Source: Nitrososphaerota archaeon (GTDB taxonomy: Archaea > Thermoproteota > Nitrososphaeria > Nitrososphaerales > UBA57). From it: a stretch of DNA of 24,194 nt. The stretch is taken from positions 1 through 24,194 of the forward strand of contig JACAFS010000010.1 in NCBI GenBank assembly GCA_013378385.1. The letters run 5' to 3'. The first letter of the stretch is position 1. Each line of letters starts with the position of its first letter. The notes beneath the pieces were generated by a model. That model saw only the letters and a list, made by a program, of their open reading frames with translations. It did no database searches and had not been told where the DNA came from. Both the position numbers and the translations under genes were made by a program. Below, one piece after another: positions 6,120 through 23,897 of this stretch.

Positions 6120-6759
6120 TATAATAGACTTAGGATTAACTGAATATCAACGTGCGTTAGATATACAAAAAACATTAGTTAAAAAAAGACTAGATGATTC
6201 AGTCACAGATACATTATTGTTACTTGAACATCCACATGTAATAACATTAGGAAGACAAACAAAACCCGGTGATGTTTTAGATAATTCAATGCCAATTGTC
6301 GAGATAGATAGAGGAGGAAGTGCAACTTATCACGGACCAGGTCAGCTAATCGGTTATGTAATAATTGACCTAAGAAGAAAAGGGATTTCAGTACCTACTC
6401 TCATTACGAAAATTCATGAGAGTCTAATCAGAACATTAAGTGAATTAGACATTAAAGCGGAAAGAAAAAGAAAGAAACCAGGAATTTGGATTGAACAGAA
6501 AAAGATAGCGTCAATTGGATTATCAGTAAGAAATTGGATAACATATCACGGATTTAGCCTTAATGTTGACACTGATTTAGATAAATTTAAGATTATAAGA
6601 CCATGTGGTTTTGATAGTCAGATTATGACTTCAATAAATTACAACAAGAAAAAGAAACATTCTATGGAGATAATTAAATCAAGCATAATAAGAAATTTTG
6701 TAGATGTTTTTGAATATTATAAAATTGAAAAGAAATTAAAGGCAAGCTATAGTAATTAA
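6106..6759 (+). CDS. lipB: Octanoyltransferase (lipoyl(octanoyl) transferase LipB)
   Basis: 217 aa with LLLEHPHVITLGR, the RGGSATYHGPGQL motif, KIASIG (catalytic Lys region) and PCG. It overlaps the E2 3' end by 14 nt. Confidence 0.85.
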   Translation: MNRLNIIDLGLTEYQRALDIQKTLVKKRLDDSVTDTLLLLEHPHVITLGRQTKPGDVLDNSMPIVEIDRGGSATYHGPGQLIGYVIIDLRRKGISVPTLITKIHESLIRTLSELDIKAERKRKKPGIWIEQKKIASIGLSVRNWITYHGFSLNVDTDLDKFKIIRPCGFDSQIMTSINYNKKKKHSMEIIKSSIIRNFVDVFEYYKIEKKLKASYSN

Positions 6760-7631: not shown

Positions 7632-9365
7632 CTAAATCAAGTCCTCAACTTTATCTATAATCTGCTCGGGATAAAAAGGCTCTCCGTCATATTTAAAAAG
7701 AGTGTGATTAATTTGGAAGCCGGTTTCCATAGAGATCAATTTAGACAATTGGCCAGTATAATTTGCTTCTATAATAAGAGTGTCTTTACTATTAGAAAGA
7801 ATTTCCTTAATTTCTTTTTGTAAAGGAATCAAATATTTAATATGAAGATGATTGACGCTTTTAGAATTGTTTTGAAGAATTTGTATCGCCTCATGAACAA
7901 CATTATAAGTAGAACCCCAGCTAACAATTGTAAGATCGGCATCTGCAGGTCCTTCTAATTTTGCAGCCGGAAGTTGTTCCGCGATGAATTTCATTTTTCT
8001 CATACGTTTAAGCATAATTTTTGTACGTGTTTCGGAATCAGTGAATACATCGCTAATTATATTTCCATAATCATCATGTTCGTCACTAGAAGCTTGAAAC
8101 ACAGTACCAGAAGTACCAGGGAATGCGCGAGGAGACACCCCAGTATCGGTGTATTGGAATCGTCTATAAAGTTTATCAGAATCATTTGAAGTTACAATTT
8201 CTCCACGTTCAATAGTAGAATTAAAGTCAAGATCGCCTATTGATTCCATATGTTCAGACAGAAATAGATCAGAAAGAATAATAACAGGAATTTGGAACTG
8301 ATCGGCTAGATTAAATGCTTCAATTGTTGAATAAAAACAATCCTCAATAGTAGATGGTGCAATTATAACTTTAGGAAAATCACCTTGTGAAGCGCCAATA
8401 GCTTGAAACAAATCACCTTGTTCAGTTTTGGTAGGTAGACCCGTAGAAGGACCACCACGCATAGAATTAATAACTACAATAGGAGTTTCAGTTTGTCCTG
8501 CTAAACCGATAGCTTCTGTCATTAGTGCAAAACCGCCACCAGATGTTCCAACCATAGAACGAACGCCTGCAAAAGAAGAGCCAATTGCCATGTTAATGAC
8601 AGAGATTTCGTCTTCAGCTTGTTTAACAACCATACCGGACTTTTTAGATTGGGCAATTAGGTAATGCAAAATTGAAGAAGCCGGAGTCATAGGATATGCG
8701 CAATAGAATTTACAACCAGCAAGTATAGAACCAAATCCAAGTGCTTGATTTCCAGTAAGCACCGGTCGTTTTATATTATAATCAGGATTTAAATCGAAGT
8801 CGAAATCAGGGAGATTTGATTTGGAATATTCATAACCTGCTTCGATGACTTTAAGATTGACCTCCATGACTGATTGTTTCTTTTTGCCGAAATAATCACG
8901 AATAACGCCATTCATAACATCAACGTCAAGATCAAGTAGTTGAACAAGTGAACTAAGAGCGACAGTATTTTGGAGTATAGGATTTCGTCCTATATCTTTA
9001 AGAATCTCATTGACGGGTAATGGACAGAGAATTACACCTTTAGGTATTTTATCAGGATCAGGTTTAATTTTATCACTATTATACAAAACAGCCCCGCCAG
9101 AAACTACATCGACAATGTTACGTTGGAATTCCAATGGATTTAGAGCAATGAGGAAATCAACTTTATTTCCATGAGAAAGTATCTTATCTCTTCCTGCTCG
9201 AAGTTGAAGATATATGAACCCTCCACGAATGACTGATTGATAGCTGTTATAGGCAAGAAGATGTAATCCGCTCCGTGAACAGATTTTTGCAAATGATTCA
9301 CCAGTAGAAGCAATACCATCTCCTGCGGCACCTCCGACTCGTATAACAACTTCGTGTTTTGACAT
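7632..9365 (-). CDS. 2-oxoacid:ferredoxin oxidoreductase, alpha subunit (fused gamma+alpha domains, two-subunit archaeal type)
   Basis: 577 aa. It has an N-terminal gamma-domain motif VGGAAGDGIASTGE and an alpha-domain core AYPMTPASSI...GTSGGGFALMTEAIGLAG. It forms an operon with the beta subunit with a 0-nt spacer. Confidence 0.9.
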   Translation of the reverse strand: MSKHEVVIRVGGAAGDGIASTGESFAKICSRSGLHLLAYNSYQSVIRGGFIYLQLRAGRDKILSHGNKVDFLIALNPLEFQRNIVDVVSGGAVLYNSDKIKPDPDKIPKGVILCPLPVNEILKDIGRNPILQNTVALSSLVQLLDLDVDVMNGVIRDYFGKKKQSVMEVNLKVIEAGYEYSKSNLPDFDFDLNPDYNIKRPVLTGNQALGFGSILAGCKFYCAYPMTPASSILHYLIAQSKKSGMVVKQAEDEISVINMAIGSSFAGVRSMVGTSGGGFALMTEAIGLAGQTETPIVVINSMRGGPSTGLPTKTEQGDLFQAIGASQGDFPKVIIAPSTIEDCFYSTIEAFNLADQFQIPVIILSDLFLSEHMESIGDLDFNSTIERGEIVTSNDSDKLYRRFQYTDTGVSPRAFPGTSGTVFQASSDEHDDYGNIISDVFTDSETRTKIMLKRMRKMKFIAEQLPAAKLEGPADADLTIVSWGSTYNVVHEAIQILQNNSKSVNHLHIKYLIPLQKEIKEILSNSKDTLIIEANYTGQLSKLISMETGFQINHTLFKYDGEPFYPEQIIDKVEDLI

Positions 9366-9391
9366 ATCCTAAGATAATTGCAAGATGTATA

Positions 9392-9649
9392 TTATTTAAC
9401 CTTACGAATTAAAAATTTAAGTAATTTATCGTCTTTATTAAAGGAAAGCAATTCATTTTCTGACTTTTTTATCCATGATTTGATGTCTTCTTCAGCTACT
9501 GGGTCGTCTGCAAATACTTCGAGAATTTCGTCAATATTCATTTCTTTAATAGTTTGTCTTGTTCTAAAAACCGGTTCAGGGCAAAGTAGTCCCTGCATAT
9601 CAATAGTTTTATCAGGTTTAATAGAAGAATCTTCTTGCGACATAAACAA
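9392..9649 (-). CDS. TusA/SirA-family sulfur-carrier-like protein
   Basis: 85 aa with IDMQGLLCPEPV (the CPxP active-site motif) followed by ...LEVFADDPVAEEDIKSW, the TusA-type pattern. Confidence 0.8.
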   Translation of the reverse strand: MFMSQEDSSIKPDKTIDMQGLLCPEPVFRTRQTIKEMNIDEILEVFADDPVAEEDIKSWIKKSENELLSFNKDDKLLKFLIRKVK

Positions 9650-9724
9650 TTTCTCTCACTCTTCAATAAATAGTTATTTAGTGTTACATATATCATACAA
9701 GAAGACTAGGAAAAAGGATAGAAT

Positions 9725-11056
9725 TTGAGCTTTAGATTACCAAGAGGAATGAGAGACATAGAAGAAAACGAATATGCCAAAATTGAGAAGGTAAGAAATG
9801 CATTCAATGAGACATGTAGAATATTTGGTTTTAAAAGATTCATGCCATCCCCAATAGAGATGCTTTCAACTTTAGAAGCAAAGAGTGGACCGGGAATAAA
9901 AGAGGAAATCTATCATTTTAAAGACAAGAAAGAAAGGGATCTAGGTTTAAGATTTGATCTAACTGTAGGAATAACGCGTCATATAACGGGGAAAAAAGAT
10001 TTACGAAGACCATTTAGAGTAGGTACTTTTGGAGACATGTTCAGATATGATGAACCGCAAAAAGGGAGATATAGATGGTTCCACCAATGGAATGCAGAAA
10101 TTTATTATACTATAAAAGATAATCCAAGCAATCATGTTCTAGAACTGCTCAAGTTTTCAACATCATTATTTGATAAGATTGGAATAAAAAATTTTGAAAT
10201 AAGATTGGGACATAGAGAGGTAGCAGAAAGTTTTGTTAATGCATTATTATATGGTAAGTTAGAACAACCAGAGAGTAACAAACAACAAGAAGTAACTACA
10301 ATATTGAGATTACTAGACAAGATTGAGAAAAAAACAGAAAAACAAATAGTGGATGAAGCAATTGAACTTGGATTAAAAGAAGAGAAAGCAAAGACATTAG
10401 TGAAATTTGGAAAGATTAAATCTAGTAATATAAATACACTGAAACAAGAATATGTATCAGTATTACAAGAAATAGGAATGATAGATAGGGATATAGAAGA
10501 AACATCCGACGTGATTAAAAATTATTTCAAATTATTTGAATCAAAAATAAAGAATATAGAATTCGATTTGGGGTTAGTGAGAGGCATGGATTATTATGAT
10601 GGTTATGTGTTTGAGATCGTGGATTTAAACAATAAAGAAATTGGTTCTATAGCAGGAGGAGGTGAATATACTCGTTTGATTAAGAGTTTTTCAGGTCCTG
10701 ATAATTTGTCAGCAATAGGAATAGCAGGAGGTATAGAAAGAACAATGGAATCAATAGATGAGAATCAAGAAAAGACAAATAATCTGATATCGATAATATC
10801 ATTGTTAGAAGAAGGGGCAGAGGATTTAATCGATATATTACGTGACAGCAATATACCTACGACATATAGACAATTAGATAATGAGGATATTAAGAAAGGT
10901 CTGAAGTTTGCCGCAGTCAATAATGCAAATATTGCAATAATAATTGGAAAAAATGAACTTGCGGATGGAAAATATCGAGTTAAGGACATGAAAACAGGGA
11001 AAGAAGAACTTGTTAAGAAAGAAAGTGTCGTCGACTTCATTAAAGAATTAATATAA
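9725..11056 (+). CDS. hisS: Histidyl-tRNA synthetase (class IIa) with C-terminal anticodon-binding domain
   Basis: 443 aa. It has LPRGMRD, LRFDLTVGITR (archaeal/eukaryal HisRS type), motif 2 MFRYDEPQKGRYRWFHQ, the HisA motif VRGMDYYDG, and a C-terminal ...IAIIIGKNELADGKYRVKDMKTGKEE. A TTG start at 9725 is required to retain the conserved PRGMRD N-terminus. Confidence 0.85.
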   Translation: MSFRLPRGMRDIEENEYAKIEKVRNAFNETCRIFGFKRFMPSPIEMLSTLEAKSGPGIKEEIYHFKDKKERDLGLRFDLTVGITRHITGKKDLRRPFRVGTFGDMFRYDEPQKGRYRWFHQWNAEIYYTIKDNPSNHVLELLKFSTSLFDKIGIKNFEIRLGHREVAESFVNALLYGKLEQPESNKQQEVTTILRLLDKIEKKTEKQIVDEAIELGLKEEKAKTLVKFGKIKSSNINTLKQEYVSVLQEIGMIDRDIEETSDVIKNYFKLFESKIKNIEFDLGLVRGMDYYDGYVFEIVDLNNKEIGSIAGGGEYTRLIKSFSGPDNLSAIGIAGGIERTMESIDENQEKTNNLISIISLLEEGAEDLIDILRDSNIPTTYRQLDNEDIKKGLKFAAVNNANIAIIIGKNELADGKYRVKDMKTGKEELVKKESVVDFIKELI

Positions 11057-11077
11057 TTATAGTGTAGAAATATATCA

Positions 11078-14000
11078 ATGAGAAGTATCTTAATTTGTTG
11101 TTTAGCAGTTGTTATTACTTTATTTTTAATTCCGACTGCTTTTGCTGAAGATGTAGACGATAGCAATAATTTTGATATCAATATAAAGACAGTAGATAAT
11201 ACAGCGACAATTACAGAGATTGCAATTCCTAAGGGTAATAACAAAACAATTAGAATAGATTTACCCAAACAGAACTCTGCATTCAATGGAACTGTGACTC
11301 TTGAAATCGAGGGAAATCCTACTGGATTGAGTACTTCTTTTACTTCAACTTCAATAACCGGCTGGCAAGGAACTACTGGGAAAAATTCTACTTTAACTTT
11401 TGCACCACAACTTTCGGCAACGCCTGGCAGTTATCAGATAACAATCAAGGCAATAAATAGCAACAATGCAACAGATTATGCGCAAAGGACAATAACATTA
11501 TATATTTCAGATTTTGAAATTACAGCTTCGCCTTCGACTGTTTCGGTATTTCCAGGTGGACAAGCGGATGTAACTCTAACAGTAAGTTCAGTGTCTGATA
11601 CAAAATTTTCGGGCGATGTGCAATTATTATCTGCGTCTATGTCAGGAGCAACTATAACATACGTGGATGATGTCGTAAATGTTCCAGAGAACGGAGCGGC
11701 ATATGCAACGGTAAGGATAACAGCAGATAGCAATGCGCAATCAAATGGAGATGGAGTATCTGTTATTATTAAAGCAAAAATTGGTGATCGTGAACGTCCA
11801 GTGACGATAATTGTAAAGATAGAATCAAATCCATTGTCGTTAGGTTTAGCAGTTAGTCCCAATCCTGCAATTGTTTTTCAACCTACATTTATAACAGCTA
11901 CAATTACTGACGCATCTGGTAATCCAGTAAATGGAGCATCAGTAACATTCAATCGAATGGCTGGAAATGGAACGTTTGCGGATGGTGGAACATTTACAAC
12001 TCTCACAACAAGTTCGGATGGAAAGATTTCTGCGGCTTTTACTCCGAAAACAAAGGAAACTCTTTCAATTCGAGTCTCAGCAGAAAAGACCAATTATCTC
12101 TCTGGTGATGAGATAATACAGATAGCCGTAAAAGGTGGTTTTGTAATGTCTGTCACGCCTGCACAAGAGCAAATTAATGCAGGTGACTCAAAAGCAGTAA
12201 CATTAACGATTACATCTACAGATGGATTCAGTTCGCCAGTAGAACTGTCTTATGAGGATGTAATATCGGGATTTACAGTATCATTCTCAGAAGTTAGTCT
12301 CATACCTGAAGCAAATGGAGCATTATCTACTACAGTTACAATATTTGTTTCAGACAATGTTCAATCAGGTGATGCAATAATTGTAATAAAAGGAAGATCA
12401 GGTGGATTAACTGCAGATGTATCTGTAGGAATCAATGTCCCTAAAGCAGAATTTACTTTATCTATTAGTGAATCACAAAATGAGATCACTACTTGGCAAG
12501 GAGATATTGTAAAAATAGACATGGTATTAATATCCATAGGAGGTTTTGATGGTACTGTACAACTAAGTACCAATATAGATGACAAACCAAATATGGATAT
12601 TGAATTTTCACCAAGTTCTGTTTCATTGAGTAGTGGAGAATCAAAACAAGTTTCTTTGCTTATAACAACAACGTCAGCAACAGAACCTATAGATAGATTA
12701 CCGGTTATTATTACAGCAACGTCGTTAACTTCTGAAACTACAACAACAGCATGGTTACAGATATTAGAACTATTCGAGATTGTGATTGATTCAAACAGCA
12801 GAAATGATGGAAGCAGGATAGCAACAATAGTGATCGATGGTGTAATAACACAACCAGAACAACTTCCTATCACGAAATATTTGAAGGAAAATAGTGAATT
12901 AACTGTAAAAATTACACAAGACATTATTGATGAAACAGAAGGAACAAGGTATGTTTTTACGGGATGGAATGATCAAACGAATACTTTAGAAAAAACTATA
13001 GAAATTAATTCGCCATTAACGGTGATTGCAGAATTTGATAAACAACATTACATAAACATCAGGTCAACTCCATTAGGAAGCATGATTGGTTTACTAGACA
13101 TAGAAGGTTCAGGTTGGCATAAAGAGAATGCATTAATTGAATTGAATACTGACGATATACTAGTCGTAACAGAAGATGAATCTAGATATAGATTTGATAA
13201 ATGGAGTGGTTCAATTGAATCAAATGACAGGAATATAGAATTATTAGTTGATGGGCCAAAATTAATTTATGCAGATTACATTTTACAATATAGAATAATA
13301 AAAATAATTGAACCGTCTTTTATTGCAGATATAATAACAACATTTAATGAACAATGGATAGATAGTGGAACAGAACTGTTACTTGAAACAACAAAGAAAG
13401 CTGACGAATATGGATTCATGCAATGGACAATAACAGGAAGCAGTTTCGATATAACAAGGACTACTAATCCTACAACTATCACCGTTAATGAACCATTAAC
13501 TATTAGAATTCAGTACGATTTGCTTCCAATGGTGAATATTGAATCAGTAAGAATGGCAGATAATGGATTTGAAGGAGAAGGTTCACAGATATGGGTAGAA
13601 TTATTGAATACAGAACTAAGAGGAGGATATGTGATAATAAAAACTTCAACAAGCATTAATGGATTAATAATAGGACCTGATCAACAAGAAATATACCTTG
13701 CTCCAGGAGAGAGCAAGTTATTTGCAATTACTATGAATTATACTAAAGCCGGTAGTGGTTCAATAGACATTACATTAGAGAAAACCGGAAGTCAGGACAA
13801 TAAGTTTAAGAAAGAGTTTAAGATTTTCACTCTGAATGATAAAAGAGAAATAACAAATATAGGGATAGCATTAAGTTCGAAATATTTACAGCAAATTGAT
13901 CAGTGGATGATTCCAAATGAGAAAGTAAAGATTTGTTCATCAGAGATCTTAGAACAATCAAGAGTCGGAGAAGATGAATCAGAATTACAGAAGGCTAAAG

Positions 14001-15493
14001 TAATATTACAATTTGTATCAAATAAAATACAAATATCAACCGATGTTCCAATGAGTGCACCAATGATGATAGAAGATTTTGGAATAATTGGATGTATTAA
14101 TACTGAAGAAAAGATAAATGGTGATTCTAGAACTTATCAGATTCTAATGGGAAGTTTGTTAAGATCAATAGATGTAGAAGTAAGGCCGGTAATTGGAGTG
14201 ATGGGAATTTCTGGAGATAATAACCAAGCTAGTGCTTTAATAAATACATGGATTGAGGCAAAATTAGATGACCAATGGGTTGTCATTGATCCCATAAACA
14301 ATGTCATAGAGACTGAAATTGTAAGACCAATAAATGTAGAGGAAGGCAAATCCTATAGACAAAGATATTCAGATATTCCTGAAAACGGAGGAATATTGTC
14401 AGCCATGATTTATGATTGTATATCTATTTGTAATGTAGATGTATCGGACGAGTATAGAGGTACAGAATCGCCAACAAAACTTGGCTCAATCTTATTTGTA
14501 GATGGAGATGTTGAGATAGAAGTAAGGGATTCAAATGGGAATTTCATTGCAAATGGAACATTGAGCAATTTCAAATGGTTTGATAAAGATGTGCCTTTGA
14601 ACAATAATAGGCAAATTAAGTTAATTTTGTTATCTGAGGGTGTAGATTTAGAATACATAATAATGAGAATCAATGGAGAATTAGGAGAAGAATTTGAAAT
14701 CAATGGAATGCGAGTAATTAATTTTGAACCGCAAACAAAGTCAATTAAATCTGCATTAATTTCAAAGACTTCATCTGACTTTAAATTAGTAGCACTGGGA
14801 GAAGATTTCATAATTGCGGAATTCGACGTACTAGAGTTCGATAAGCAACAGATTGAATTTTTATCAACTTCGTCAGTAGTAGAACATTTAGAACAAAACA
14901 GATTAAATGCAATTCGTATAACAACAATTAGTCATTCAGATATTGATGAATTAATCATACTGAAATTTTCAGATGGGATACTTTCAGAGATGGAATCCAA
15001 ATCATCAAGTATTGTTGCGATCATTAATGGAATAGAATCTCCAGTAGAGATAATTGATGATGGAGTAGTAATAACAATCATAATAGATGACCTGCAGAAT
15101 CAAAATGAGAATGTAATAACATTATACTTCGCTTCGTATACTATGAATTTTGAGCTGAGAGACCCACTAAATCAGATAATTAGAAACGCGGATATAACCA
15201 TGATAGGGGAATTTATGAATAGGACACAAACAAGTAACGAAGGAATGTTTACTAGACTAATTCCAGGAAACTATGATTTTATTGTAGAATATCGAGGAGA
15301 ACAAGAAATTATTTCCAAGAGAATTACGAATGATGATGTAGATATAGAGATCAATCTTTATCGTTCAGACTCGATGGTAATATTCTTTATAGCAATTATA
15401 TTTACAGTGATTCTAGTTGTAGCATATAGTATAGAAAAAGCGTTTGCAAGAATTTTACCGGAATATATCAACAAGAATACTGATTCATTTTAA
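11078..15493 (+). CDS. Giant multi-domain cell-surface protein (signal peptide, Ig-like/CARDB-like repeats, Big_1-like domain, InlB-B-repeat-like modules, degenerate transglutaminase-like domain, CarboxypepD_reg-like domain, C-terminal TM anchor)
   Basis: 1471 aa. The signal peptide is MRSILICCLAVVITLFLIPTAFA|ED. Repeated about 100-aa beta-sandwich modules carry the recurring pattern F.I(S).P....(V/I)..G....V.L(T)(V/I).S. The Big_1-like segment reads ITATITDASGNPVNGASVTFN. RYVFTGWND and YRFDKWSG modules are present. The TGase-like core is described in a separate feature. The C-terminus reads LRDPLNQIIRNADITM...LIPGNYDFIVEY, followed by the TM helix MVIFFIAIIFTVILVVAYSI. Confidence 0.8.
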   Translation: MRSILICCLAVVITLFLIPTAFAEDVDDSNNFDINIKTVDNTATITEIAIPKGNNKTIRIDLPKQNSAFNGTVTLEIEGNPTGLSTSFTSTSITGWQGTTGKNSTLTFAPQLSATPGSYQITIKAINSNNATDYAQRTITLYISDFEITASPSTVSVFPGGQADVTLTVSSVSDTKFSGDVQLLSASMSGATITYVDDVVNVPENGAAYATVRITADSNAQSNGDGVSVIIKAKIGDRERPVTIIVKIESNPLSLGLAVSPNPAIVFQPTFITATITDASGNPVNGASVTFNRMAGNGTFADGGTFTTLTTSSDGKISAAFTPKTKETLSIRVSAEKTNYLSGDEIIQIAVKGGFVMSVTPAQEQINAGDSKAVTLTITSTDGFSSPVELSYEDVISGFTVSFSEVSLIPEANGALSTTVTIFVSDNVQSGDAIIVIKGRSGGLTADVSVGINVPKAEFTLSISESQNEITTWQGDIVKIDMVLISIGGFDGTVQLSTNIDDKPNMDIEFSPSSVSLSSGESKQVSLLITTTSATEPIDRLPVIITATSLTSETTTTAWLQILELFEIVIDSNSRNDGSRIATIVIDGVITQPEQLPITKYLKENSELTVKITQDIIDETEGTRYVFTGWNDQTNTLEKTIEINSPLTVIAEFDKQHYINIRSTPLGSMIGLLDIEGSGWHKENALIELNTDDILVVTEDESRYRFDKWSGSIESNDRNIELLVDGPKLIYADYILQYRIIKIIEPSFIADIITTFNEQWIDSGTELLLETTKKADEYGFMQWTITGSSFDITRTTNPTTITVNEPLTIRIQYDLLPMVNIESVRMADNGFEGEGSQIWVELLNTELRGGYVIIKTSTSINGLIIGPDQQEIYLAPGESKLFAITMNYTKAGSGSIDITLEKTGSQDNKFKKEFKIFTLNDKREITNIGIALSSKYLQQIDQWMIPNEKVKICSSEILEQSRVGEDESELQKAKVILQFVSNKIQISTDVPMSAPMMIEDFGIIGCINTEEKINGDSRTYQILMGSLLRSIDVEVRPVIGVMGISGDNNQASALINTWIEAKLDDQWVVIDPINNVIETEIVRPINVEEGKSYRQRYSDIPENGGILSAMIYDCISICNVDVSDEYRGTESPTKLGSILFVDGDVEIEVRDSNGNFIANGTLSNFKWFDKDVPLNNNRQIKLILLSEGVDLEYIIMRINGELGEEFEINGMRVINFEPQTKSIKSALISKTSSDFKLVALGEDFIIAEFDVLEFDKQQIEFLSTSSVVEHLEQNRLNAIRITTISHSDIDELIILKFSDGILSEMESKSSSIVAIINGIESPVEIIDDGVVITIIIDDLQNQNENVITLYFASYTMNFELRDPLNQIIRNADITMIGEFMNRTQTSNEGMFTRLIPGNYDFIVEYRGEQEIISKRITNDDVDIEINLYRSDSMVIFFIAIIFTVILVVAYSIEKAFARILPEYINKNTDSF
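14120..14290 (+). other. Transglutaminase-like (papain-fold) core domain with all-but-Asp of the Cys-His-Asp triad substituted
   Basis: GDSRTYQILMGSLLRSIDVEVRPVIGV aligns to the TGase-core consensus G.C..FA.L...LLRA.GIPAR.V.GY, with Ser in place of the catalytic Cys. NTWIEAKLDDQWVVIDP aligns to HAW.EVY..G.GW..FDP, with Asn in place of His and the Asp retained. The spacing is S-39-N-15-D. Confidence 0.6.
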
Positions 15494-16824
15494 TTAGATT
15501 TTAACAACTTATTGAGGTTTCGATCGTATGTAGTGATTGTATTCTCAAGTTTTTTAAGGTCGTCTTCACTAATTTGGAATTCATTCCACAAATCAAGTTC
15601 TCTAATATATTCTTTAAAACGATCATAACCAGGTTTAACTGTTTCAACGATGTTTTCTAATTTAGCACCGCCAAGAAGTAATAATACGTCCAATCTATCA
15701 GAATTCTCTTTAACAGGAACAATTTGAATCAAAGATTCTTTCAAGGAAGGGAAACGTTTTCGATTCCAGGCATTATAATCATCTTCTAGACGCTTAGCAG
15801 ATACAGTATTAAGAACAGATTCAGGAACACGAATAACAACAATACTCAATATGATAGATTCGTACTGGAAGGGAGAAAGCGGAAAATATGCTGCATCATC
15901 TAGTATATTTTTTAAATTGTCATAAATTTCATAACTTCGACCATAAACATAAACCGGTGAGAAAGCTAGAACTTTGAGAGACTTTGCCATTTTGCCAAGA
16001 CTATTTATTGCATGTCCATTACTAGTTAACAAACTAAGAATTCGTGGAACTAAAATTTCGTATCCTAATTTTTTACCTGAACGATCTATTCCAATCATTT
16101 TGCTAAGTGCATTACCTTGTAAAACAATAAGCATATCTCCCGAAGTCTTTTGATTTTTTACTAAACGAGAAATGCCGCAATACGCATTGAATTGTACTTG
16201 ATCAGTATCATTATTAGATGGGAGAGAAGCAAGAACTATTCGTGAAGATTTAGGATTAATGTGTTTAATCTTTTTGATTAAGGGAAGGGTGAGTCCTGAA
16301 ACTAGTGTTTCTCCGATTGACCCAGTAATAATAGCAGTCTGTTCGTCAATATTATTATTAATACCAACCCGACGAATTTTATCTTCAAATTTATCAAATT
16401 CAGAAAAGGTATTTTCGAATTCACTCCAAGTATTGATATTAGAATCATAATCTTCATCGATTAGATAATAATTAGGATCATTAGAAGTAGATTCAGTTGA
16501 ATAAGAAGAATTTTTTTCAGAATCAATAAAATCAACTAATAAATGATTTAATCGTTCAGGATGAACAGAATTTTTAAATGAAAGAAGCGTCTGTGAGCCA
16601 AAATCCCCAATACCAAAATTAATTACTTTATGGAGATTTTTGACTTTGACTGAATTAAGATTATCGATCAAAAGTGAAAGTTCTTTTTTAAAATTTATTA
16701 AAGGAAGATTACAAGTTGCACATTCTTCTAAACCACGAACATTCTTGTGACCATCAGGGCATAAAATAAAAGAATTATAAGAAAGTTTTCTAGATGTAGG
16801 ACGAGTCATTACAATGTATATCAT
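15490..16824 (-). CDS. Uncharacterised protein: N-terminal zinc-ribbon (C-x3-H-x8-C-x2-C) plus a divergent FtsZ/tubulin-like core with degenerate nucleotide-binding motifs
   Basis: 444 aa. The zinc-ribbon segment is CPDGHKNVRGLEECATC. VINFGIGDFGSQTLLSF aligns to the FtsZ G1 box (IkViGvGGgGsNavnrM). AIITGSIGETLVSGLTLPLIKKIK aligns to the T4 segment vFvTaGmGGGTGTGaaPviAeiAK, but GGGTGTG is replaced by GSIGETLVSG. IVLASLPSNND...NAYCGISRL...DMLIVLQGNAL aligns to vaVVTkPFsFEG...A..Gi.eL...DtlIviPNdrL. The T7-equivalent is GHAINSLGKMAKSL and lacks the acidic residues of NxDxxD. The call is by-eye alignment only. The ORF itself is well supported by its length and lack of overlap. Confidence 0.55.
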   Translation of the reverse strand: MIYIVMTRPTSRKLSYNSFILCPDGHKNVRGLEECATCNLPLINFKKELSLLIDNLNSVKVKNLHKVINFGIGDFGSQTLLSFKNSVHPERLNHLLVDFIDSEKNSSYSTESTSNDPNYYLIDEDYDSNINTWSEFENTFSEFDKFEDKIRRVGINNNIDEQTAIITGSIGETLVSGLTLPLIKKIKHINPKSSRIVLASLPSNNDTDQVQFNAYCGISRLVKNQKTSGDMLIVLQGNALSKMIGIDRSGKKLGYEILVPRILSLLTSNGHAINSLGKMAKSLKVLAFSPVYVYGRSYEIYDNLKNILDDAAYFPLSPFQYESIILSIVVIRVPESVLNTVSAKRLEDDYNAWNRKRFPSLKESLIQIVPVKENSDRLDVLLLLGGAKLENIVETVKPGYDRFKEYIRELDLWNEFQISEDDLKKLENTITTYDRNLNKLLKSN

Positions 16825-16893
16825 ATAAGAGAATAAAAATAATTGGGTCAGATAGGCATAATTCCTATTAATTATTAATTAATAGTAAGATAT
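16825..16893. promoter_or_regulatory. 69-nt AT-rich divergent intergenic region, presumably holding promoters for the 444-aa (minus) and 326-aa (plus) genes
   Basis: This is the only non-coding DNA between the divergent genes. It contains TATA-like runs (AATAAAAATAATT; TATTAATTATTAATTAATA) within about 10-30 nt of each start codon, consistent with short-leader or leaderless archaeal transcripts. No experimental support is possible from the sequence alone. Confidence 0.3.
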
Positions 16894-17874
16894 ATGAAAC
16901 GACAAGACAAAGATATTGAATATAAATCCGTAATACTAGAACAAAGTAACAAGAATGTAAAAGGTCGTTTAATAATAACAGGAAATAAAATTTTATTTCA
17001 GAAAAAAGTGGGTTTAATATCAAAAAAATATGAAACTGAATTTCATACAATAATTGAATCAATAAATAAAATCGAAAAAGAAGGTTATTCGAAAATTTTA
17101 ATTACAGATAAAGAAAAAAATATTACAGTAAAATTTATTTTAGATACGCCAGTTGAGGCGAATGAAATTAGTGATAAGATTAATGATACAATAAATCAAT
17201 TAATTCTCGATACTGAAGAAGAGAAGAAGGATGAAATAGATCAGAGAATCAATCTAGCAAATTATTCAACCTATGTGTATGATATTACATTAGAATTATG
17301 GACTACAATTAGTTTGTTATTCATGATTATGAAAGAAACAATAGACAATAATTGGGATGAAGTTGATATAAAGGTGGAAGAATTCAAAGAGATAGTAGCA
17401 GAATTAGATAATAATAAAGTGAATATCAATGGTGATGCAAAAAATATCATAACGTCAATTAAAAGTAGAGATGATTTAACAATAGTGAATTCAATCAGAG
17501 TGTTGATAAAAACATTAGGCGAGTCTTTACAAGGTCCTGTACCATATAGTGAATGGAAAGAAATCAGTTCATCCATGAAACCAAGTTGGGAGAATTTACA
17601 ATTTTTTTATCTCTTTACGGTTGCAATATTTGAATCGTATTATTTTGAGAACATGAACATGGATGAAGAAAGGAAATCATCGAAAGCAAATGTAATTAAA
17701 TACATTCCAATAGTTAATGGACATTTTTCAGATCAGTTATTTGACAAAACAAAATATTCGACAAAAACACTTAGAGAAAGAAACGATACAATTGAGCAAT
17801 TAATAGATGAAACTACTGATAAATTGCAAGAGTTGTTAAAAGATTCTTTGAAGAAAGTAAGTTTGTTAAATTAG
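16894..17874 (+). CDS. Uncharacterised soluble protein: N-terminal PH/GRAM-like beta-sandwich (about residues 10-95) plus an acidic linker and a C-terminal all-helical domain
   Basis: 326 aa. SVILEQSNKNVKGRLIITGNKILFQKK....ETEFHTIIESINKIEKEGYSKILITDKEKNITVKFIL resembles bacterial/archaeal PH (bPH/GRAM) domains (G.L.iT..ri.F....... followed by beta strands and a terminal helix EANEISDKINDTINQLI). The remainder is helical and Glu/Lys/Asp-rich. The fold assignment is tentative. Confidence 0.45.
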   Translation: MKRQDKDIEYKSVILEQSNKNVKGRLIITGNKILFQKKVGLISKKYETEFHTIIESINKIEKEGYSKILITDKEKNITVKFILDTPVEANEISDKINDTINQLILDTEEEKKDEIDQRINLANYSTYVYDITLELWTTISLLFMIMKETIDNNWDEVDIKVEEFKEIVAELDNNKVNINGDAKNIITSIKSRDDLTIVNSIRVLIKTLGESLQGPVPYSEWKEISSSMKPSWENLQFFYLFTVAIFESYYFENMNMDEERKSSKANVIKYIPIVNGHFSDQLFDKTKYSTKTLRERNDTIEQLIDETTDKLQELLKDSLKKVSLLN

Positions 17875-17876
17875 TG

Positions 17877-20240
17877 TTATTTATTTTTCAACAATGTATT
17901 TTTAGATGTATTGAAGGTAACCGTGGATTTACCATAAGCAAATAGTTGTAAGTACTGTACTGCGTATTTACTCCTTACAGGCAATTGCCTAGGAATAACT
18001 TTTCCTTCGATACTAATTAATGAAGAGATTAACGGTTCAATATTAACATAATTTAAGATAAATTCATTCATAATGAGGTATTTCTTGAGTGTAGTGGCTT
18101 CATTTTCAATAATTTTTATACCATATTCGATATTCGATAATCTATCAGACAAATCAGTTTGTGCCTGATCGTCAAGTCGTCTGAGAGAAGATTCGATTTC
18201 AGAAATCAGTTGTGTGTCCTTACCCCATTGAAAATCTAAAGGAACACGTGTATCATTACGTTTTTCAAATTCTCTCAATAATCGTAATAATTCGCCAATA
18301 ACAGTATGTGTACCTGTTTCAAGAAATTGTAACATAGACATAACATCAGGCAGATATAGAATTCCAGTAAAGGTAGAAAGTTGTTCATAATTAATCTGAA
18401 TCTGTTTAGCAACATCAATAGTTTCAATGTCGGTTGGGGTTTGACCCAGAGATTCATTCAATGGAATTATGTTATATTCGTGCATTTTTAATGAACGTTC
18501 AATTAAACGTTTAAGATTTGTAATTGTTTTTTGCATTACTTGATTATAGCGTTTATGAAGAGATGCAATTGTAATAAGAAGAGTATCTAGAGCTTGTGAG
18601 CCTTTTCCTTGTAGAATGAAGTTTTCACTAATAGAAATAGAAGTGAATTCTAGTGTGGGGTCAAATTCTTTTTGCACAACAGTAACAAGACTTTCTGCAA
18701 CACGAATAGTATTTTGAGATACCTCAAGAAAATAGTCGTTCAATTCACGTTGATTATTTAAGACGTCGTCAAATGTAAGATCAGAACTATAAGATAAATG
18801 GTCAGAGTTTATAGATGGAAGATTAGCAATACCAAGTTTTTCAAGCTTAGTTAGCATATCTTGACATTTATCAAGTTGATCGTTATGGTAATTGATGACC
18901 TTAAGTTCTAATGAATCATTTCCAGATAGTTGAGAATCAGAGAAAACGCGAATTTTCTCAGATTTTTCTTTGAGTCCTGAATATGAGAGCGTATATAATC
19001 CATCAAGAGTAATAGAAAGTTCTTCTTTGAATTCGCCAAGCGAGGTTATTGAATTACTAATATCAATACCAGGACATATTTCCTGAATTTCCTCTAGTTG
19101 TGAACCAGAATCATCAATACTACTGAGATAATTGTTGCATTGTTCTTTGACTAATTCAGTAAGTTCAGCACCTTTTGATCTTCTAGAGAGATTAATAGAG
19201 GACAATGACATTGCAACACCAATTGTACCCGCAGCAAGAATAGATTTGAATGAATCAGATGAATTAAAACCAGTAGAATAGTCAAAAGGGATTTGCATGG
19301 CTTGTAAAGGAACAATAAAGAATAGTGTGCCAGCAATAAGAGTAATTACATAAGAATAACTGGGCAATATACTTAATTCAATACCGCGTTCGTCCATCCA
19401 CGGCCATAGTTTATCTAGAATAGATATAAAAGAAAGAGACAAAATCATAAGGATTGGAATAAATAACAAAACAAGATTATCGATTAGAACAAACAAATAT
19501 GAATTAAAGAGGTTATTTTGTAGAGAAAGGAAACCGGAAAGAGATTCACTAAGAGCAAATTCATTGAAAGACAACAACCTAGGACTAGTTTCATAAACAA
19601 TTTGTGAGAACATAGGCATAGTAGAATCAGATATAAGAGAATAGATTACCTGTGGCCTAGTATTTGGATTAATTGATAATATTTCAGCTAATCCAAGTGC
19701 ATTAAATGGAATAAACATAATTAGGAATGAAAATAAAAGTCCAATATTTTTTGAGAGATTATCAGTTTTTTTAATTATTGCATAAACAAGCATAAGAGGT
19801 ATTGAAACAAAATAATATGGAGTCAAGAATAAAGTTCCAGCAGTTAAACCAAATATTAGAGTGAAGATATTATCTGGGTCATTTAATGCTTTAGCAATAA
19901 AGACGCCAACAACGAAGAAACTAAGTAATAACCACCAGAAAGGTATTGATGTCTGATAAAGATAAGCAGGAATAAACAGAATAAATGAGATCAGAAATCC
20001 GGAAGTTATTGACCTGAATCCAATAAAAGCAGAAAGAATTGAAATAAGAAATACAATAGGAATTGGATATAATGGAACAGTGTATAGAATAATTAAACTA
20101 AATAAGAAGATTGAACTAGCAAATAGAATCTTTTTTAGATTTTTACGATATTGTTGTTCTCGTTCAATAGCATTATCGATATCAGAAGATGGTCGGAATC
20201 CAACTTTATCAATTACAGAAGAATTGATTAATTTAGACAA
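17877..20240 (-). CDS. Uncharacterised polytopic membrane protein (about 9-11 TM helices, residues about 37-350) with an approximately 430-aa C-terminal cytoplasmic helical domain
   Basis: 787 aa. Hydrophobic segments include ILFASSIFLFSLIILYTV, IPIVFLISILSAFIGF, GFLISFILFIPAYLY, FWWLLLSFFVVGVFIA, IFTLIFGLTAGTLFL, YYFVSIPLMLVYAII, IGLLFSFLIMFIPFNALGLA, YLFVLIDNLVLLFIPILMILSLSFISIL, YVITLIAGTLFFIVPL and ILAAGTIGVAMSLSSI. I recognise no family motif in the C-terminal half. It lies 25 nt downstream of the 900-aa gene on the same strand. Confidence 0.75.
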   Translation of the reverse strand: MSKLINSSVIDKVGFRPSSDIDNAIEREQQYRKNLKKILFASSIFLFSLIILYTVPLYPIPIVFLISILSAFIGFRSITSGFLISFILFIPAYLYQTSIPFWWLLLSFFVVGVFIAKALNDPDNIFTLIFGLTAGTLFLTPYYFVSIPLMLVYAIIKKTDNLSKNIGLLFSFLIMFIPFNALGLAEILSINPNTRPQVIYSLISDSTMPMFSQIVYETSPRLLSFNEFALSESLSGFLSLQNNLFNSYLFVLIDNLVLLFIPILMILSLSFISILDKLWPWMDERGIELSILPSYSYVITLIAGTLFFIVPLQAMQIPFDYSTGFNSSDSFKSILAAGTIGVAMSLSSINLSRRSKGAELTELVKEQCNNYLSSIDDSGSQLEEIQEICPGIDISNSITSLGEFKEELSITLDGLYTLSYSGLKEKSEKIRVFSDSQLSGNDSLELKVINYHNDQLDKCQDMLTKLEKLGIANLPSINSDHLSYSSDLTFDDVLNNQRELNDYFLEVSQNTIRVAESLVTVVQKEFDPTLEFTSISISENFILQGKGSQALDTLLITIASLHKRYNQVMQKTITNLKRLIERSLKMHEYNIIPLNESLGQTPTDIETIDVAKQIQINYEQLSTFTGILYLPDVMSMLQFLETGTHTVIGELLRLLREFEKRNDTRVPLDFQWGKDTQLISEIESSLRRLDDQAQTDLSDRLSNIEYGIKIIENEATTLKKYLIMNEFILNYVNIEPLISSLISIEGKVIPRQLPVRSKYAVQYLQLFAYGKSTVTFNTSKNTLLKNK

Positions 20241-20265
20241 TTTTTATCTCCAAAATATCAGAGAA

Positions 20266-22968
20266 TTATGAACTGGTATCCTCAATCCGTTTAGTGCTTT
20301 TAAGTTCATGATCAGGAGATACATGAACGCCTTGTTCTAATAAATAGGAATGAGATAGGAGTCTTTCTCCTTGAGTAGTTTGATTATACAGGATATCCAT
20401 TTCCTTGAATGTTTCGAGATCTTTGACACTAGCTTTTGCAGCAATAATTAGAAATCTCATAGTCCAAGGATCAGTTGAATCGACTTCGCGTATGTAAATA
20501 CTTTTGGAAGCGTCTTGTTTTACATAACCAGACAACATAGTTTTAGCTTCGGAATCAAGGTCTTTATCCCATAAACCACGAGGGCTTACTACGGTGAACC
20601 ATAGATAATCAGTTCGGTATTCAGCAGTTAGACCCATTGTAGCAGGAATTCTGAATATACCAAGGGCGCCAGAGAGATATTCCTTAAGATGTTGTCTATC
20701 AATAATTTCGTTGAGCATATTCTCTTGTGTAAGAGACGCTTCATCTTCCAGAAGTATACGTTGCATAATTTTTAGTTGCTCGCCTTCGGTTAATTCCGCA
20801 ACACGATCATAATAACCACGATCTCGCATAGACTCATTCATTTTCTCGTAATAAGTATTTTGAAGAGTTGAAGCTTCAGTTAATAATTTTCTATATGAAG
20901 ATGCTACTTCAAATTTTCTTTCAATGTTTTGATATGCAGAAAGTTTTGACTGGATAGTTTTACGTTCTTCAGTAATCGCAGTGAGTTGAGAATCTATAAT
21001 ATTTAATTCATGTTCGAGATCTGATGCTTTACCTTGCATATACTTCTTTTTTGGACCTAAGAATCCAAATCTAATTTTCTTTGCTTGTCCACCGACTCTA
21101 CCTTTTTCTTGTTCACGACTGCGTTTTTTAATTGTAAGGTTTTCTTCTTCAACTTTTAGTTCCTCTGTTCTTTCGGTTGTTAGTCTTTTCATAACTTGAC
21201 AATCGCCGAGCCGTGCGTCGAGAGTCTTAACTTCAGTTTCAACAGGAGACAGTAAAGAAGACAGAAGTGCAAAGTTTATGACAAGTTCAGGATTACTAAT
21301 TCGTTCTACTGCAATTTGCATTCGTTTATGTAATTCAGTTTTTTCTGATTTGGCAAGTGTTTTATTAAGTTTATCCGCAAGATTACTGATATTAAGATAT
21401 AATTGTAAACCAGTAAGGTATTGATCAATAAGTTCAACTAGATTAATAGTATCGGTAATAATTTGATTTTGTCTTGGAGTAAGTTTTTGAGCACTAGGCA
21501 ATGTGTTGCGTAAGTCTTCGGTTAATTGCTTAACTTTATCTTGTAAAGTATTATAGTTTTGAGATAAGTTACTACTAAGAGATACTAATTCTTCGGATAG
21601 AGTTCTTATCCTAGCTTCTACAGTACCATCTGCAGCATCCAATCCTATTGATAAAACGGATTTGGATAAGTCATTTACTAAAGTACGGGTAGCAGTTTCT
21701 GCTCCACGAATATGCATGAGTAATTCGGCATCCATAGAAACCCCCTCTCCAAGGAAGCTTTGGACGTTTTCTTCAAATCTTGATTCTTCATAGGTATTTT
21801 TCTCGATAGAGAGACCTCGATATACGGCTTTTAATTCATCGTACGATGAATTCATTACATCGATAAGTCCTTTAGATTGTTCATTTCCTGAGTAAATTTC
21901 TAATTTTTCTTTTCTTAGTTCACGTAAACGGTCTAATTTATCAAGATATATTTTAGTGAGTTCAATAAATTCAGCAACTGGATAAGAAACTTTCAGTGTA
22001 GAAATTACATTGACCCATTTTCCTCCCAAATCTACATTAGAACCAATATTACTGAATAAATCTGCCAAGTCAAAATTCAAAGATTTCATCAATATATCAA
22101 CTATAGCCTCATCGACTAACTTACGAGCGTCAAGTACACTTCCAGTTCTACTATAAGCAGGACCAAGAGACATCATAAGAAAAGCCGTAAACGGATTTTT
22201 ATATGGTTCTCCATAAGTGCTAACAACATTATGATTTAGAGATCGATCAATAGCATATTCATGTTCAAGAAGAGAAGAATAACAAGAAGCTCCTTTAGCA
22301 GGAGGGTCGTCGCCACTACAAGGAAGAATAGCTAATCCAATAATTGGTATTCCACTGCCTATTTTTTTTCTCAAATGTCTTGCAAAGTCTAATGCAGTAC
22401 CACTACCTGAACCGCCACCAAGGCCATAAACCAAAAATATAATTGGCTGAATAGTAGCCGTAAAGACATGTTCTTTAAATTTATCCATATAACCGTCGAC
22501 AAGTTTGAGATGATGATAATTCAATCCATAAATTGCTTTAGATAAAGCGCGTTTTCTTCCAACTCCTCCAGCAAGCGGAGGAATTTCCATAGACGAAGAG
22601 AGCCAAGGTGTGTACTGTTCAGGTACAACTGCACCTTCACGTTCAAGAAAATCTGGATATGCTTTAATAAAATCAAACATTGATTCCGGAGTAGGGAATT
22701 TCATAGTTTTACTTTCAAGATGTATTTTATCAGTAGGAATTCCATTGGTTTTTAGAGTCTCAGATAGATTCTTGTAAGCCATATCAAGACTACGTATATC
22801 ATGATCTGCAACATCTAATGCAAGCAGTGAAATTTTAATCCCGTCGATTTTCAGGAGAGGGAGTAAATTATCGTGATTTTGTACAAATGATTCAATTACA
22901 TTTGCTCCTGTGCCTCCTAAGCCAACAATTTGTATAGAACTAGTATAATCTGCAGCCAAAGCAATCAC
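20266..22968 (-). CDS. Large FtsZ/tubulin-superfamily GTPase (N-terminal about 330 aa) fused to an approximately 450-aa coiled-coil region, a basic patch and a C-terminal globular domain
   Basis: 900 aa. The G1 box is IQIVGLGGTGANVIESF (nt 22906-22923). The T3-like segment is AGGVGRKRALSKA. The T4 tubulin signature is IIFLVYGLGGGSGSGTALDFARHL (GGGSGSG, nt 22399-22419). IIGLAILPCSGDD is equivalent to the FtsZ VVTKPFsFEG strand. The T7-like segment SLNFDLADL matches NxDxxD. Residues about 335-760 are heptad-rich and Glu/Lys/Leu-rich. The basic segment is KKRSREQEKGRVGGQAKKIRFGFLGPKKKYMQGK (nt 21028-21129). The GTG start overlaps the upstream stop by 1 nt. Confidence 0.8.
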   Translation of the reverse strand: MIALAADYTSSIQIVGLGGTGANVIESFVQNHDNLLPLLKIDGIKISLLALDVADHDIRSLDMAYKNLSETLKTNGIPTDKIHLESKTMKFPTPESMFDFIKAYPDFLEREGAVVPEQYTPWLSSSMEIPPLAGGVGRKRALSKAIYGLNYHHLKLVDGYMDKFKEHVFTATIQPIIFLVYGLGGGSGSGTALDFARHLRKKIGSGIPIIGLAILPCSGDDPPAKGASCYSSLLEHEYAIDRSLNHNVVSTYGEPYKNPFTAFLMMSLGPAYSRTGSVLDARKLVDEAIVDILMKSLNFDLADLFSNIGSNVDLGGKWVNVISTLKVSYPVAEFIELTKIYLDKLDRLRELRKEKLEIYSGNEQSKGLIDVMNSSYDELKAVYRGLSIEKNTYEESRFEENVQSFLGEGVSMDAELLMHIRGAETATRTLVNDLSKSVLSIGLDAADGTVEARIRTLSEELVSLSSNLSQNYNTLQDKVKQLTEDLRNTLPSAQKLTPRQNQIITDTINLVELIDQYLTGLQLYLNISNLADKLNKTLAKSEKTELHKRMQIAVERISNPELVINFALLSSLLSPVETEVKTLDARLGDCQVMKRLTTERTEELKVEEENLTIKKRSREQEKGRVGGQAKKIRFGFLGPKKKYMQGKASDLEHELNIIDSQLTAITEERKTIQSKLSAYQNIERKFEVASSYRKLLTEASTLQNTYYEKMNESMRDRGYYDRVAELTEGEQLKIMQRILLEDEASLTQENMLNEIIDRQHLKEYLSGALGIFRIPATMGLTAEYRTDYLWFTVVSPRGLWDKDLDSEAKTMLSGYVKQDASKSIYIREVDSTDPWTMRFLIIAAKASVKDLETFKEMDILYNQTTQGERLLSHSYLLEQGVHVSPDHELKSTKRIEDTSS
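22399..22419 (-). other. Tubulin/FtsZ signature motif (GGGSGSG) of the 900-aa protein
   Basis: The reverse complement of 22399-22419 is ggtggcggttcaggtagtggt, which translates to G G G S G S G. This is one conservative change from the canonical GGGTG(T/S)G. Confidence 0.8.
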
Positions 22969-23897
22969 TATACTAATTCTTTAAGCTCCCTTTTAATTGT
23001 TTCAAGGTCGTCAGATAGAGATTTATCAATTCGAGATGCTTTAATTAGTAAAAGATCTAATTTGTCTGCTTTTTCAGAAACACTTGAAGACAGATAAGAA
23101 CTAGAAGATCTAGTTCGGATAAATAATAAAGCAAATGCAATAGTTGTAATACCAAATATAACACTTGCAATAATAAATAATGTAGTTGTACTAGGTGGAG
23201 CAGGATAATCTGAGTCAGGAATGGTGTTAAGAAGTTTTATTGCATCGTCATATAATCCAAAAGTAGTAAGATATTCCGCTTCTGAAACTATTTCAAGAGC
23301 TAAAGAATTATATTTTCCTTCCATAGATATTGAATCTAGTTTTTCTAATTTAGATTGTAAAAGTGCATCATAAGAAATAATTGTTTGATCAGTAATCGTA
23401 TATGTGCGTTCGTCAAGAATTTCCATAGAATCAAGAGACATCACGAGTATAGGAACAAGTTCAAGAGCATGAACGGTTTTATCCATATCAACTACATCTT
23501 TTTCAGTTATTGATTCAGGAATTTTTCCATCTAAAGTAAATTGAGCAGTTCCTTCAACTGCTTGAAATACGATTGATTGAGAACCAGGAGTCCAGACAGA
23601 AGTATCAACGCCTTGGTAATTATTATTAAGAGTCCAAAAAGAATTTCCAGACTTTTCCATACTGGTTGTTAATAAAATATTATCAGATAATGTAGCACCA
23701 ATTTCTATTTCAAAATGTATAGTATAAGCGCCACCGGCAACAAGAAATTCATCAGTGACATCATTACCATTTGGATCAAGAACAGTGAAATTTGTCAGGA
23801 CAGCGGGTGCTTGAGAATAAGAGATAGGTAAAAGAATCGCTGAAAGAAATATAGAAATAATCAAAATACTGAATTTATAATTAGTCATTAAGTGCAT
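22968..23897 (-). CDS. Uncharacterised type-I membrane protein: cleavable signal peptide, approximately 200-aa extracellular beta-rich plus helical ectodomain, single TM, approximately 50-aa cytoplasmic helical tail
   Basis: 309 aa. The signal peptide is MHLMTNYKFSILIISIFLSAILLPISYSQA|PAV. A PAPPSTTT linker precedes the TM helix LFIIASVIFGITTIAFALLFI, followed by RTRSSSS (positive-inside). The tail contains ...KADKLDLLLIKASRIDKSLSDDLETIKRELKELV. Its stop TAG (22970-22968) overlaps the GTG start of the 900-aa gene (TAGTG). Confidence 0.7.
   Translation of the reverse strand: MHLMTNYKFSILIISIFLSAILLPISYSQAPAVLTNFTVLDPNGNDVTDEFLVAGGAYTIHFEIEIGATLSDNILLTTSMEKSGNSFWTLNNNYQGVDTSVWTPGSQSIVFQAVEGTAQFTLDGKIPESITEKDVVDMDKTVHALELVPILVMSLDSMEILDERTYTITDQTIISYDALLQSKLEKLDSISMEGKYNSLALEIVSEAEYLTTFGLYDDAIKLLNTIPDSDYPAPPSTTTLFIIASVIFGITTIAFALLFIRTRSSSSYLSSSVSEKADKLDLLLIKASRIDKSLSDDLETIKRELKELV

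Follow-up and report, generated by a model that had tools for sequence, protein, structure and literature searches.

The closest described relatives of the system considered here are the FtsZl1 proteins, which were described in 2010 (Makarova and Koonin, PMC2875224). In that account, an FtsZl1 protein is about 1000 residues long and consists of an FtsZ-like domain at the N-terminus, a long coiled coil, and a separate C-terminal domain that is mostly helical. The T6-H7 part of the tubulin fold could not be identified in these proteins. Their operon partners are a vWA-domain protein, a divergent P-loop GTPase, an OmpA-like protein or a protein kinase. The present system is a set of five consecutive genes at positions 15490-23897 of contig JACAFS010000010.1 (assembly GCA_013378385.1), which belongs to a Nitrososphaerota archaeon. 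Two of the five genes encode tubulin-like proteins. Below, the window is the whole stretch of 24,194 nucleotides (nt) that was analysed.

Santana-Molina et al. 2023 (PMC9871819) handled Tubulin_2 proteins, the Pfam family to which the FtsZl1 type corresponds, only as an outgroup. The Culexarchaeia paper mentions that Bathyarchaeia and Nitrososphaeria have FtsZ-like sequences which are non-canonical and uncharacterised, and it does not analyse their context. No experimental function for FtsZl1/Tubulin_2 proteins was found in the searchable literature. Likewise, no description of the five-gene set was found in that literature, which excludes most subscription journals. The tubulin-like 900-residue protein is already known from databases, and the FtsZl1 concept from the literature. 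Our verdict is that the locus belongs to the known FtsZl1/Tubulin_2 kind and represents a new variant of its operons. We hold with high confidence that its genes form a co-functional membrane module built around two tubulin-like proteins.

The genes of the module, and the spacer between the two that diverge, are as follows.

15490..16824, minus strand: z444, the gene of the 444-residue protein (open reading frame listing)
16825..16893, no strand: AT-rich spacer of 69 nt between the divergent z444 and P326 genes (sequence read)
16894..17874, plus strand: P326, the gene of the 326-residue protein (open reading frame listing)
17877..20240, minus strand: M787, the gene of the 787-residue protein, with a TTG start (open reading frame listing)
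20266..22968, minus strand: the gene of the 900-residue protein, with a GTG start (open reading frame listing)
22968..23897, minus strand: B309, the gene of the 309-residue protein (open reading frame listing)

The genes are closely packed. Base 22968 is common to the B309 stop and the start of the 900-residue gene. A 25-nt spacer separates the latter from M787, and a GGAG lies 9 nt 5' of the M787 TTG start. The stops of P326 and M787 are 2 nt apart. The spacer at 16825..16893 presumably holds the promoters of both z444 and P326. The five reading frames, their overlaps and spacers, and the motifs quoted for them in the original prediction all lie exactly where it had placed them.

If the genes work together, they should also be found together in other genomes, and the original prediction had proposed this as a check. 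The neighbourhood was surveyed in 82 sources, by tblastn and by all-against-all clustering of the neighbouring open reading frames. B309 adjoins a homologue of the 900-residue gene in 78 of the 82, with a median gap of 3 nt; M787 is found in 72 and z444 in 70. The least constant member is P326, which occurs in 33 sources and is represented by a homologous family in 7 Bathyarchaeia loci (40/82). Where core genes are missing, this is mostly at contig ends, and a strict count was made on the 49 loci flanked on either side by 4.5 kb or more. B309, the 900-residue gene, M787 and z444 stand together in 48 of these loci, and in all 49 when z444 is sought with tblastn. Such adjacency across related loci rules out a chance arrangement. 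Median gaps between the genes are 3, 28, -1 and -4 nt.

The hosts are Nitrososphaeria, Bathyarchaeia, Methanomethylicota and Dehalococcoidia, and three gene orders are seen among them. Synteny was found in all four groups. The five genes of the Dehalococcoidia version all point the same way, with overlaps of a few nt. Conservation in these bacteria equals that in archaea; the module is not confined to the latter, and the finding is more general than first supposed. For the four core proteins, the matrices of pairwise identity are correlated (r = 0.92-0.98), and therefore the set has been inherited as a unit. The ratio of non-synonymous to synonymous substitution rates (dN/dS) lies at 0.05-0.16 across all five genes, which indicates purifying selection. 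The clustering of neighbouring reading frames returned no other family that is conserved across the three phyla. Four core genes and a fifth that is often present make up the module, which is self-contained, co-inherited and selectively maintained. The earlier reading of the five genes as one unit is supported, the four-gene core (48/49 loci) being more constant than P326.

A viral origin was also considered. No relatives were found in IMG/VR, and the match in BFVD was merely a generic one to phage tubulin, so this origin is rejected. PADLOC gave no defence-system match for any of the five proteins.

The 900-residue protein is a genuine member of the FtsZ/tubulin superfamily, of the Pfam Tubulin_2 (FtsZl1) type. 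It matches PF13809 (Tubulin_2) with 36.3 bits against a cut-off of 27, over profile positions 2-207 of 356, and PF00091 with 28.2 bits. Three superfamily motifs are intact, as had been claimed: GLGGTG at residue 16 (T1), GGGSGSG at 184 (T4) and NFDLAD at 298-303 (T7). Across 62 homologues, F299 and D300 do not vary, and conservation is 90% or higher for D303 and for the glycines at 182-190. Homologues that span the full length, about 900 residues, occur in Nitrososphaeria, Dehalococcoidia and other Chloroflexota, Bathyarchaeia and Methanomethylicota. PF13809 is part of the precomputed annotation of homologues, and NCBI names some of them “tubulin-like domain-containing protein”.

An AlphaFold2 (AF2) model made with 62 homologues is of good quality, with a predicted local distance difference test score (pLDDT) of 89.8 and a predicted template modelling score (pTM) of 0.78. 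It divides the protein into three parts.

21979..22968, minus strand: residues 1-330, with the order S1 to S6, H7, T7, H8, S7 (AF2 model; PF13809/PF00091)
20824..21978, minus strand: residues 331-715, all helical, with helices reaching about 55 residues (DSSP assignment in the AF2 model)
20266..20823, minus strand: residues 716-900, a conserved alpha/beta domain (AF2 model)

In a Foldseek search of the PDB with this model, the best match is CetZ1 (4b46, E 2.4e-7, target-normalised TM-score 0.52), followed by FtsZ, TubZ, BtubA and tubulin. All 50 matches listed belong to the tubulin superfamily. The NFDLAD motif sits between H7 and H8 (model helices 278-296 and 302-308), and it fits the NxDxxD synergy loop of FtsZ.

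The helical region of about 390 residues matches only coiled-coil or designed helical proteins in the PDB by sequence, at E > 0.03. In the model, it stands directly after S7 and is followed by H758-773, E789-795, H802-815, E824-830 and E836-846. This order agrees with S7-H9-S8-H10-S9-S10 of FtsZ. Because of this order of elements, the helical region may be an insertion into the tubulin C-terminal domain. Four residues of the C-terminal domain (W790, P796, W800 and W835) are invariant in the family. BFVD gave matches to small RusA-like folds with a probability of 0.9-0.98; the position in the query is not reported, and these matches may reflect the C-terminal domain.

The 900-residue protein does not stand outside FtsZl1, since it passes the Tubulin_2 threshold and its model shows the three-part FtsZl1 layout. 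What differs is the type of operon. None of the partners B309, M787, P326 and z444 shows a match to vWA, P-loop GTPase, OmpA or protein-kinase families. In place of these, the module has a second tubulin-like protein and three families without a Pfam match as its obligatory partners. Further differences are that H7 and an FtsZ-type T7 loop are clearly present in the 900-residue subfamily, that its C-terminal domain is alpha/beta rather than mostly helical, and that the host range of the module comprises Thermoproteota lineages and Dehalococcoidia. The locus is not a canonical division locus either, as had been expected: the 900-residue protein scores 17.8 against a cut-off of 295.2 for TIGR00065 and has no FtsZ_C match, and the neighbouring genes are metabolic.

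The second tubulin-like protein, z444, is the product of a small family without a name. It belongs to the FtsZ/tubulin superfamily, although the window protein alone falls short of the Pfam cut-off (PF00091, E 7e-5, 23.6 bits against 33, over profile positions 2-189 of 190). PF00091 is matched by 32 of 36 orthologues, with a best E of 1.3e-13. A profile of the family finds AtubB2, an Asgard tubulin (2.2e-11), and CetZ1 (4.3e-11) in the PDB, then FtsZ and TubZ. An AF2 model from a 12-sequence alignment has a pLDDT of 54.5 and was used only for the order of secondary structure and as supporting evidence. Its strands and helices fit a complete two-domain tubulin/FtsZ fold, with Foldseek returning TubZ, CetZ, gamma-tubulin and FtsZ at 5e-11. 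A tubulin/FtsZ-like core at about residues 64-390 is followed by C-terminal helices. As a compact two-domain protein of archaeal type, z444 can be compared with CetZ, TubZ, artubulin and those FtsZ-like proteins of TACK archaea that are non-canonical. Profile searches, AF2 models and Foldseek thus agree with the earlier placement of both proteins in the superfamily. The two had been called paralogs, and this is correct only at that level: aligned with each other by hhalign, they match with 78% probability and an E of 1.8e-5 over 68 columns, which is too distant for any closer relation.

The z444 family counts 106 representatives among 1.84 billion, and its dN/dS is 0.064. Ten representatives were looked up, and every one is unnamed or “hypothetical” and derives from an environmental assembly. 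Given the size of the family and these ten entries, z444 was rejected as a candidate for the well-known FtsZ-like protein of ammonia-oxidising Thaumarchaeota.

It had further been proposed that z444 is an inactive partner. In the window, the T4 position reads SIGETLVSG (169-177), and the tubulin signature GGGTG[ST]G is absent. The T7 stretch after H7 (about 267-275), located with the help of the alignment and of the AF2 model of low confidence, reads SNGHAINSL(GK) and has no acidic residue; this segment is not conserved family-wide. Other lineages differ at T4, with WDG[VI]GS[GA] in Bathyarchaeia and GGGTGSG in Dehalococcoidia. Since the Dehalococcoidia orthologues keep the canonical form, the loss of T4 is lineage-specific. 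The proposal therefore describes the lineage of the window but not the family.

At its N-terminus, z444 has a Cys/His motif, C22-P-x-G-H26 ... C35-x-x-C38 (window 16711-16761, minus strand), which from its residues is probably a zinc ribbon. The motif is invariant in Nitrososphaeria, largely conserved in Dehalococcoidia and missing in Bathyarchaeia.

Both B309 and M787 are membrane proteins whose cytoplasmic parts are conserved, and hydropathy agrees with their earlier description as bitopic and polytopic, respectively. B309 begins with a signal-like segment (residues 9-27), followed by an extracellular domain of about 210 residues (about 30-240), a single transmembrane helix (242-260), and a helical cytoplasmic tail of about 50 residues. 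By inspection of a 35-sequence alignment, this tail is the best-conserved stretch across phyla, with the consensus DQAKxLDxLxxRASKIDKxL...VKxxL. B309 matches no Pfam, NCBIfam or PADLOC family and has no convincing match in the PDB, the best (E 0.0056) being to an unrelated ABC-transporter protein.

In M787, hydropathy of the protein and of its family alignment gives about 9-10 transmembrane helices within residues 37-351. The motif RRSK stands directly after the last of them. A cytoplasmic helical domain of about 435 residues follows, whose last 130 or so residues are conserved. No Pfam, NCBIfam or PADLOC family matches M787. The only PDB match is to ClyA/HlyE (E 4e-4, over a helical stretch); we ascribe it to the composition of long helices and not to homology. 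An 83%-identical homologue (P0234), found in a search that reached relatives of at least 55% identity, carries the NCBI name [quoted passage not shown]. This is probably a misannotation, as no profile search supports it.

The fifth protein, P326, is soluble. Its N-terminal domain of about 100 residues is joined through a charged linker to a C-terminal domain that is helical; W154 is nearly invariant. Pfam, NCBIfam and PADLOC gave nothing useful for it. Matches of the N-terminal domain to bPH_3, bPH_1, GRAM, PH_trem, bPH_10 and Vps36 GLUE (E 0.03-0.08) all fall below threshold, as do PDB matches to a “Pleckstrin homology domain” (6f8e, E 0.0047), POB3 (0.13) and the WH1 domain of WASP (0.4). 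These matches are consistent with one another, and a PH-like fold is plausible; among the original observations, this one is the only soft point. P326 is homologous to genes of about 300 codons in Bathyarchaeia (hhalign 98.4%) and Methanomethylicota (98.5%). In the Nitrososphaeria lineage of the window, the P326 gene is inverted relative to the bacterial order, and this inversion leaves the module with three transcription units instead of one.

The module lies among housekeeping genes. The remaining genes of the window serve ordinary metabolism and translation: they encode a HIT protein, a thiamine pyrophosphate enzyme, lipoyl synthase, the E1-beta and E2 subunits of a 2-oxoacid dehydrogenase, lipoate ligase, a 2-oxoacid:ferredoxin oxidoreductase and histidyl-tRNA synthetase. 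The module is therefore part of the core chromosome and not of an island. Its closest database relatives are marine Nitrososphaeria metagenome-assembled genomes. On another contig, a 240-kb JGI metagenome contig (L084), the whole module occupies positions 8001-15153 between the gene of ribosomal protein S11 and those of RpoD, L18e, L13, S9, RpoN and enolase. Few gene neighbourhoods of archaea are as conserved as this one, with its ribosomal-protein and RNA-polymerase genes.

One further gene adjoins the module in the window.

11078..15493, plus strand: S1471, the gene of a giant surface protein of 1471 residues (Pfam Ig_VWA7, Big_1, Transglut_core; hydropathy)

S1471 has a signal peptide, Ig-like domains, a transglutaminase-like core (residues 964-1072) and a C-terminal transmembrane anchor. 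Its gene converges on z444, the two ends overlapping by 4 nt. It adjoins the module in 11 Nitrososphaeria sources, at identities as low as 26%, and is absent from the Dehalococcoidia and Bathyarchaeia versions. S1471 is a lineage-specific neighbour outside the universal core.

What the module does can be proposed from the parts it contains. The reading we prefer, and to which we give about an even chance, is that of a membrane-tethered, GTP-dependent assembly of tubulin-superfamily proteins which organises or remodels the membrane or envelope. In this model, the assembly would be built at the cytoplasmic face of the cell membrane. z444 would join it as a non-catalytic partner. The tail of B309 and the cytoplasmic domain of M787 would hold the assembly at the membrane, and P326 could serve as a peripheral adaptor. 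The output would be organisation or remodelling of the membrane or envelope, not primarily cell division. A similar arrangement is known from FtsZ and its tethers FtsA, ZipA and SepF, where a soluble tubulin-like GTPase also goes with partners anchored in the membrane, and short cytoplasmic elements of the latter could keep it there.

Several points weigh against this proposal. Makarova and Koonin (PMC2875224) warned that FtsZl1 proteins may not form filaments, and related proteins that combine a tubulin domain with a coiled coil have since been reinterpreted as parts of conflict systems (PMC7159879). The notion of an inactive partner fails for z444 as a whole family, given the canonical GGGTGSG of the bacterial proteins, and the model of z444 is of low confidence. 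Finally, M787, B309 and P326 match no recognisable family, so the roles given to them are guesses. The earlier proposals, with z444 as a capper or nucleator, a helix of B309 as tether, M787 as platform and P326 as lipid binder, are likewise hypotheses.

A more specific version of the tethered assembly is possible, and we offer it tentatively. Here, in what would be a prokaryotic cytoskeletal system not described before, two unlike tubulin-superfamily subunits would co-assemble into a heteromeric polymer resembling that of alpha/beta-tubulin, with the two membrane proteins as anchors. The large subunit would contribute the catalytic T7 and a C-terminal domain split by the helical insertion, and the small subunit would lack a catalytic T7. 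The cassette would have moved between Thermoproteota and Chloroflexota. Such a pair would differ from alpha/beta-tubulin and from the BtubA/BtubB heterodimers, because the 900-residue protein and z444 can barely be aligned with each other, differ twofold in size, and include one member with a helical region of about 390 residues.

Other functions have to be weighed against a membrane-organising assembly. The tubulin-like GTPases may be a nucleotide-dependent switch or scaffold for the membrane proteins, in an envelope-biogenesis or transmembrane signalling or transport complex. They would, for example, position or gate the assembly of surface proteins without forming a cytomotive filament. We consider this unlikely, though it agrees with the large extracellular domain of B309 and the ten or so transmembrane helices of M787. 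S1471, with its transglutaminase-like core, is also a constant neighbour in Nitrososphaeria, but it is absent from the bacterial and Bathyarchaeia versions. The host lineages are all uncultured groups. Some Dehalococcoidia lack peptidoglycan and have S-layers, which would suit a role in the envelope. Transport or signalling was suggested for FtsZl1 contexts by Reviewer 1 of PMC2875224; M787, however, matches no transporter, glycosyltransferase or sortase family.

An anti-virus conflict system dependent on nucleoside triphosphates, of the kind proposed by Kaur et al. 2020, is improbable. The tubulin-like proteins would then assemble on infection and the membrane proteins would be the effectors. 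The GTPase-centred GAP1-N2/DO-GTPase systems (PMC7159879) do contain tubulin domains fused to a coiled-coil or helical C-terminal region, sometimes with two tubulin genes per locus, and membrane-bound partners occur among them. The patchy distribution across domains, with apparent transfer between archaea and bacteria, would also suit such a system. Yet the four conserved partner families include no TRAFAC-clade, GAP1 or DO-GTPase, vWA, HSP70, FNIII or recognisable effector domain, variable or otherwise. Gene content is invariant, the surroundings are those of housekeeping genes, and the genes are under strong and even purifying selection. Within Nitrososphaeria, the flanks keep their synteny. 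The clustering showed no further family shared by the three phyla, and PADLOC had no match. Segregation of DNA by a TubZ-like filament, with DNA bound by the putative zinc ribbon of z444 or another component, is very improbable. Both tubulin-like proteins have TubZ among their best structural matches, and the N-terminal Cys/His motif of z444 is zinc-ribbon-like. Nevertheless, Bathyarchaeia z444 proteins lack this motif, and the module lies in core chromosomal regions rather than on plasmids or viruses. Neither a TubR-like DNA-binding gene nor a repeat array was seen, and the obligatory partners are two dedicated membrane proteins.

For the question of whether FtsZl1/Tubulin_2 proteins polymerise, the module is a clean case, and one that varies unusually little. 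Its four or five proteins form a fixed set, T7 is unmistakable in the large subunit, and the second tubulin-like subunit and the two membrane partners are constant. The contrast between the intact GGGTGSG of the bacterial z444 proteins and the degenerate form in the lineage of the window is a natural one for studying nucleotide binding in the small subunit. The hosts belong to abundant but poorly understood lineages, namely deep-ocean Nitrososphaeria, Bathyarchaeia, Methanomethylicota and Dehalococcoidia. Should the two tubulin-like subunits indeed co-assemble, heteromeric polymers of the tubulin type would extend beyond eukaryotes, the BtubAB of Prosthecobacter and the Asgard tubulins, and the module would bear on the origin of heterodimeric tubulin systems.

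Some minor observations concern the rest of the window. At 1281-9365, a cluster of lipoyl synthase, E1-beta/E2 and lipoate ligase genes adjoins the two-subunit 2-oxoacid:ferredoxin oxidoreductase. Presumably, this combination suits a heterotrophic rather than an ammonia-oxidising marine thaumarchaeon. Two listed reading frames are probably not genes: one at 9378-9728 (plus strand, 116 residues), whose translation is Ser-rich and of low complexity, and one at 17271-17576 (minus strand, 101 residues), which lies antisense within the P326 gene. ARAGORN reports no tRNA in the window; an Rfam tRNA match at 525-581 (minus strand, 36.5 bits, model positions 10-63 of 71) may mark an archaeal tRNA that has an intron or is atypical in some other way, or else a tRNA fragment.

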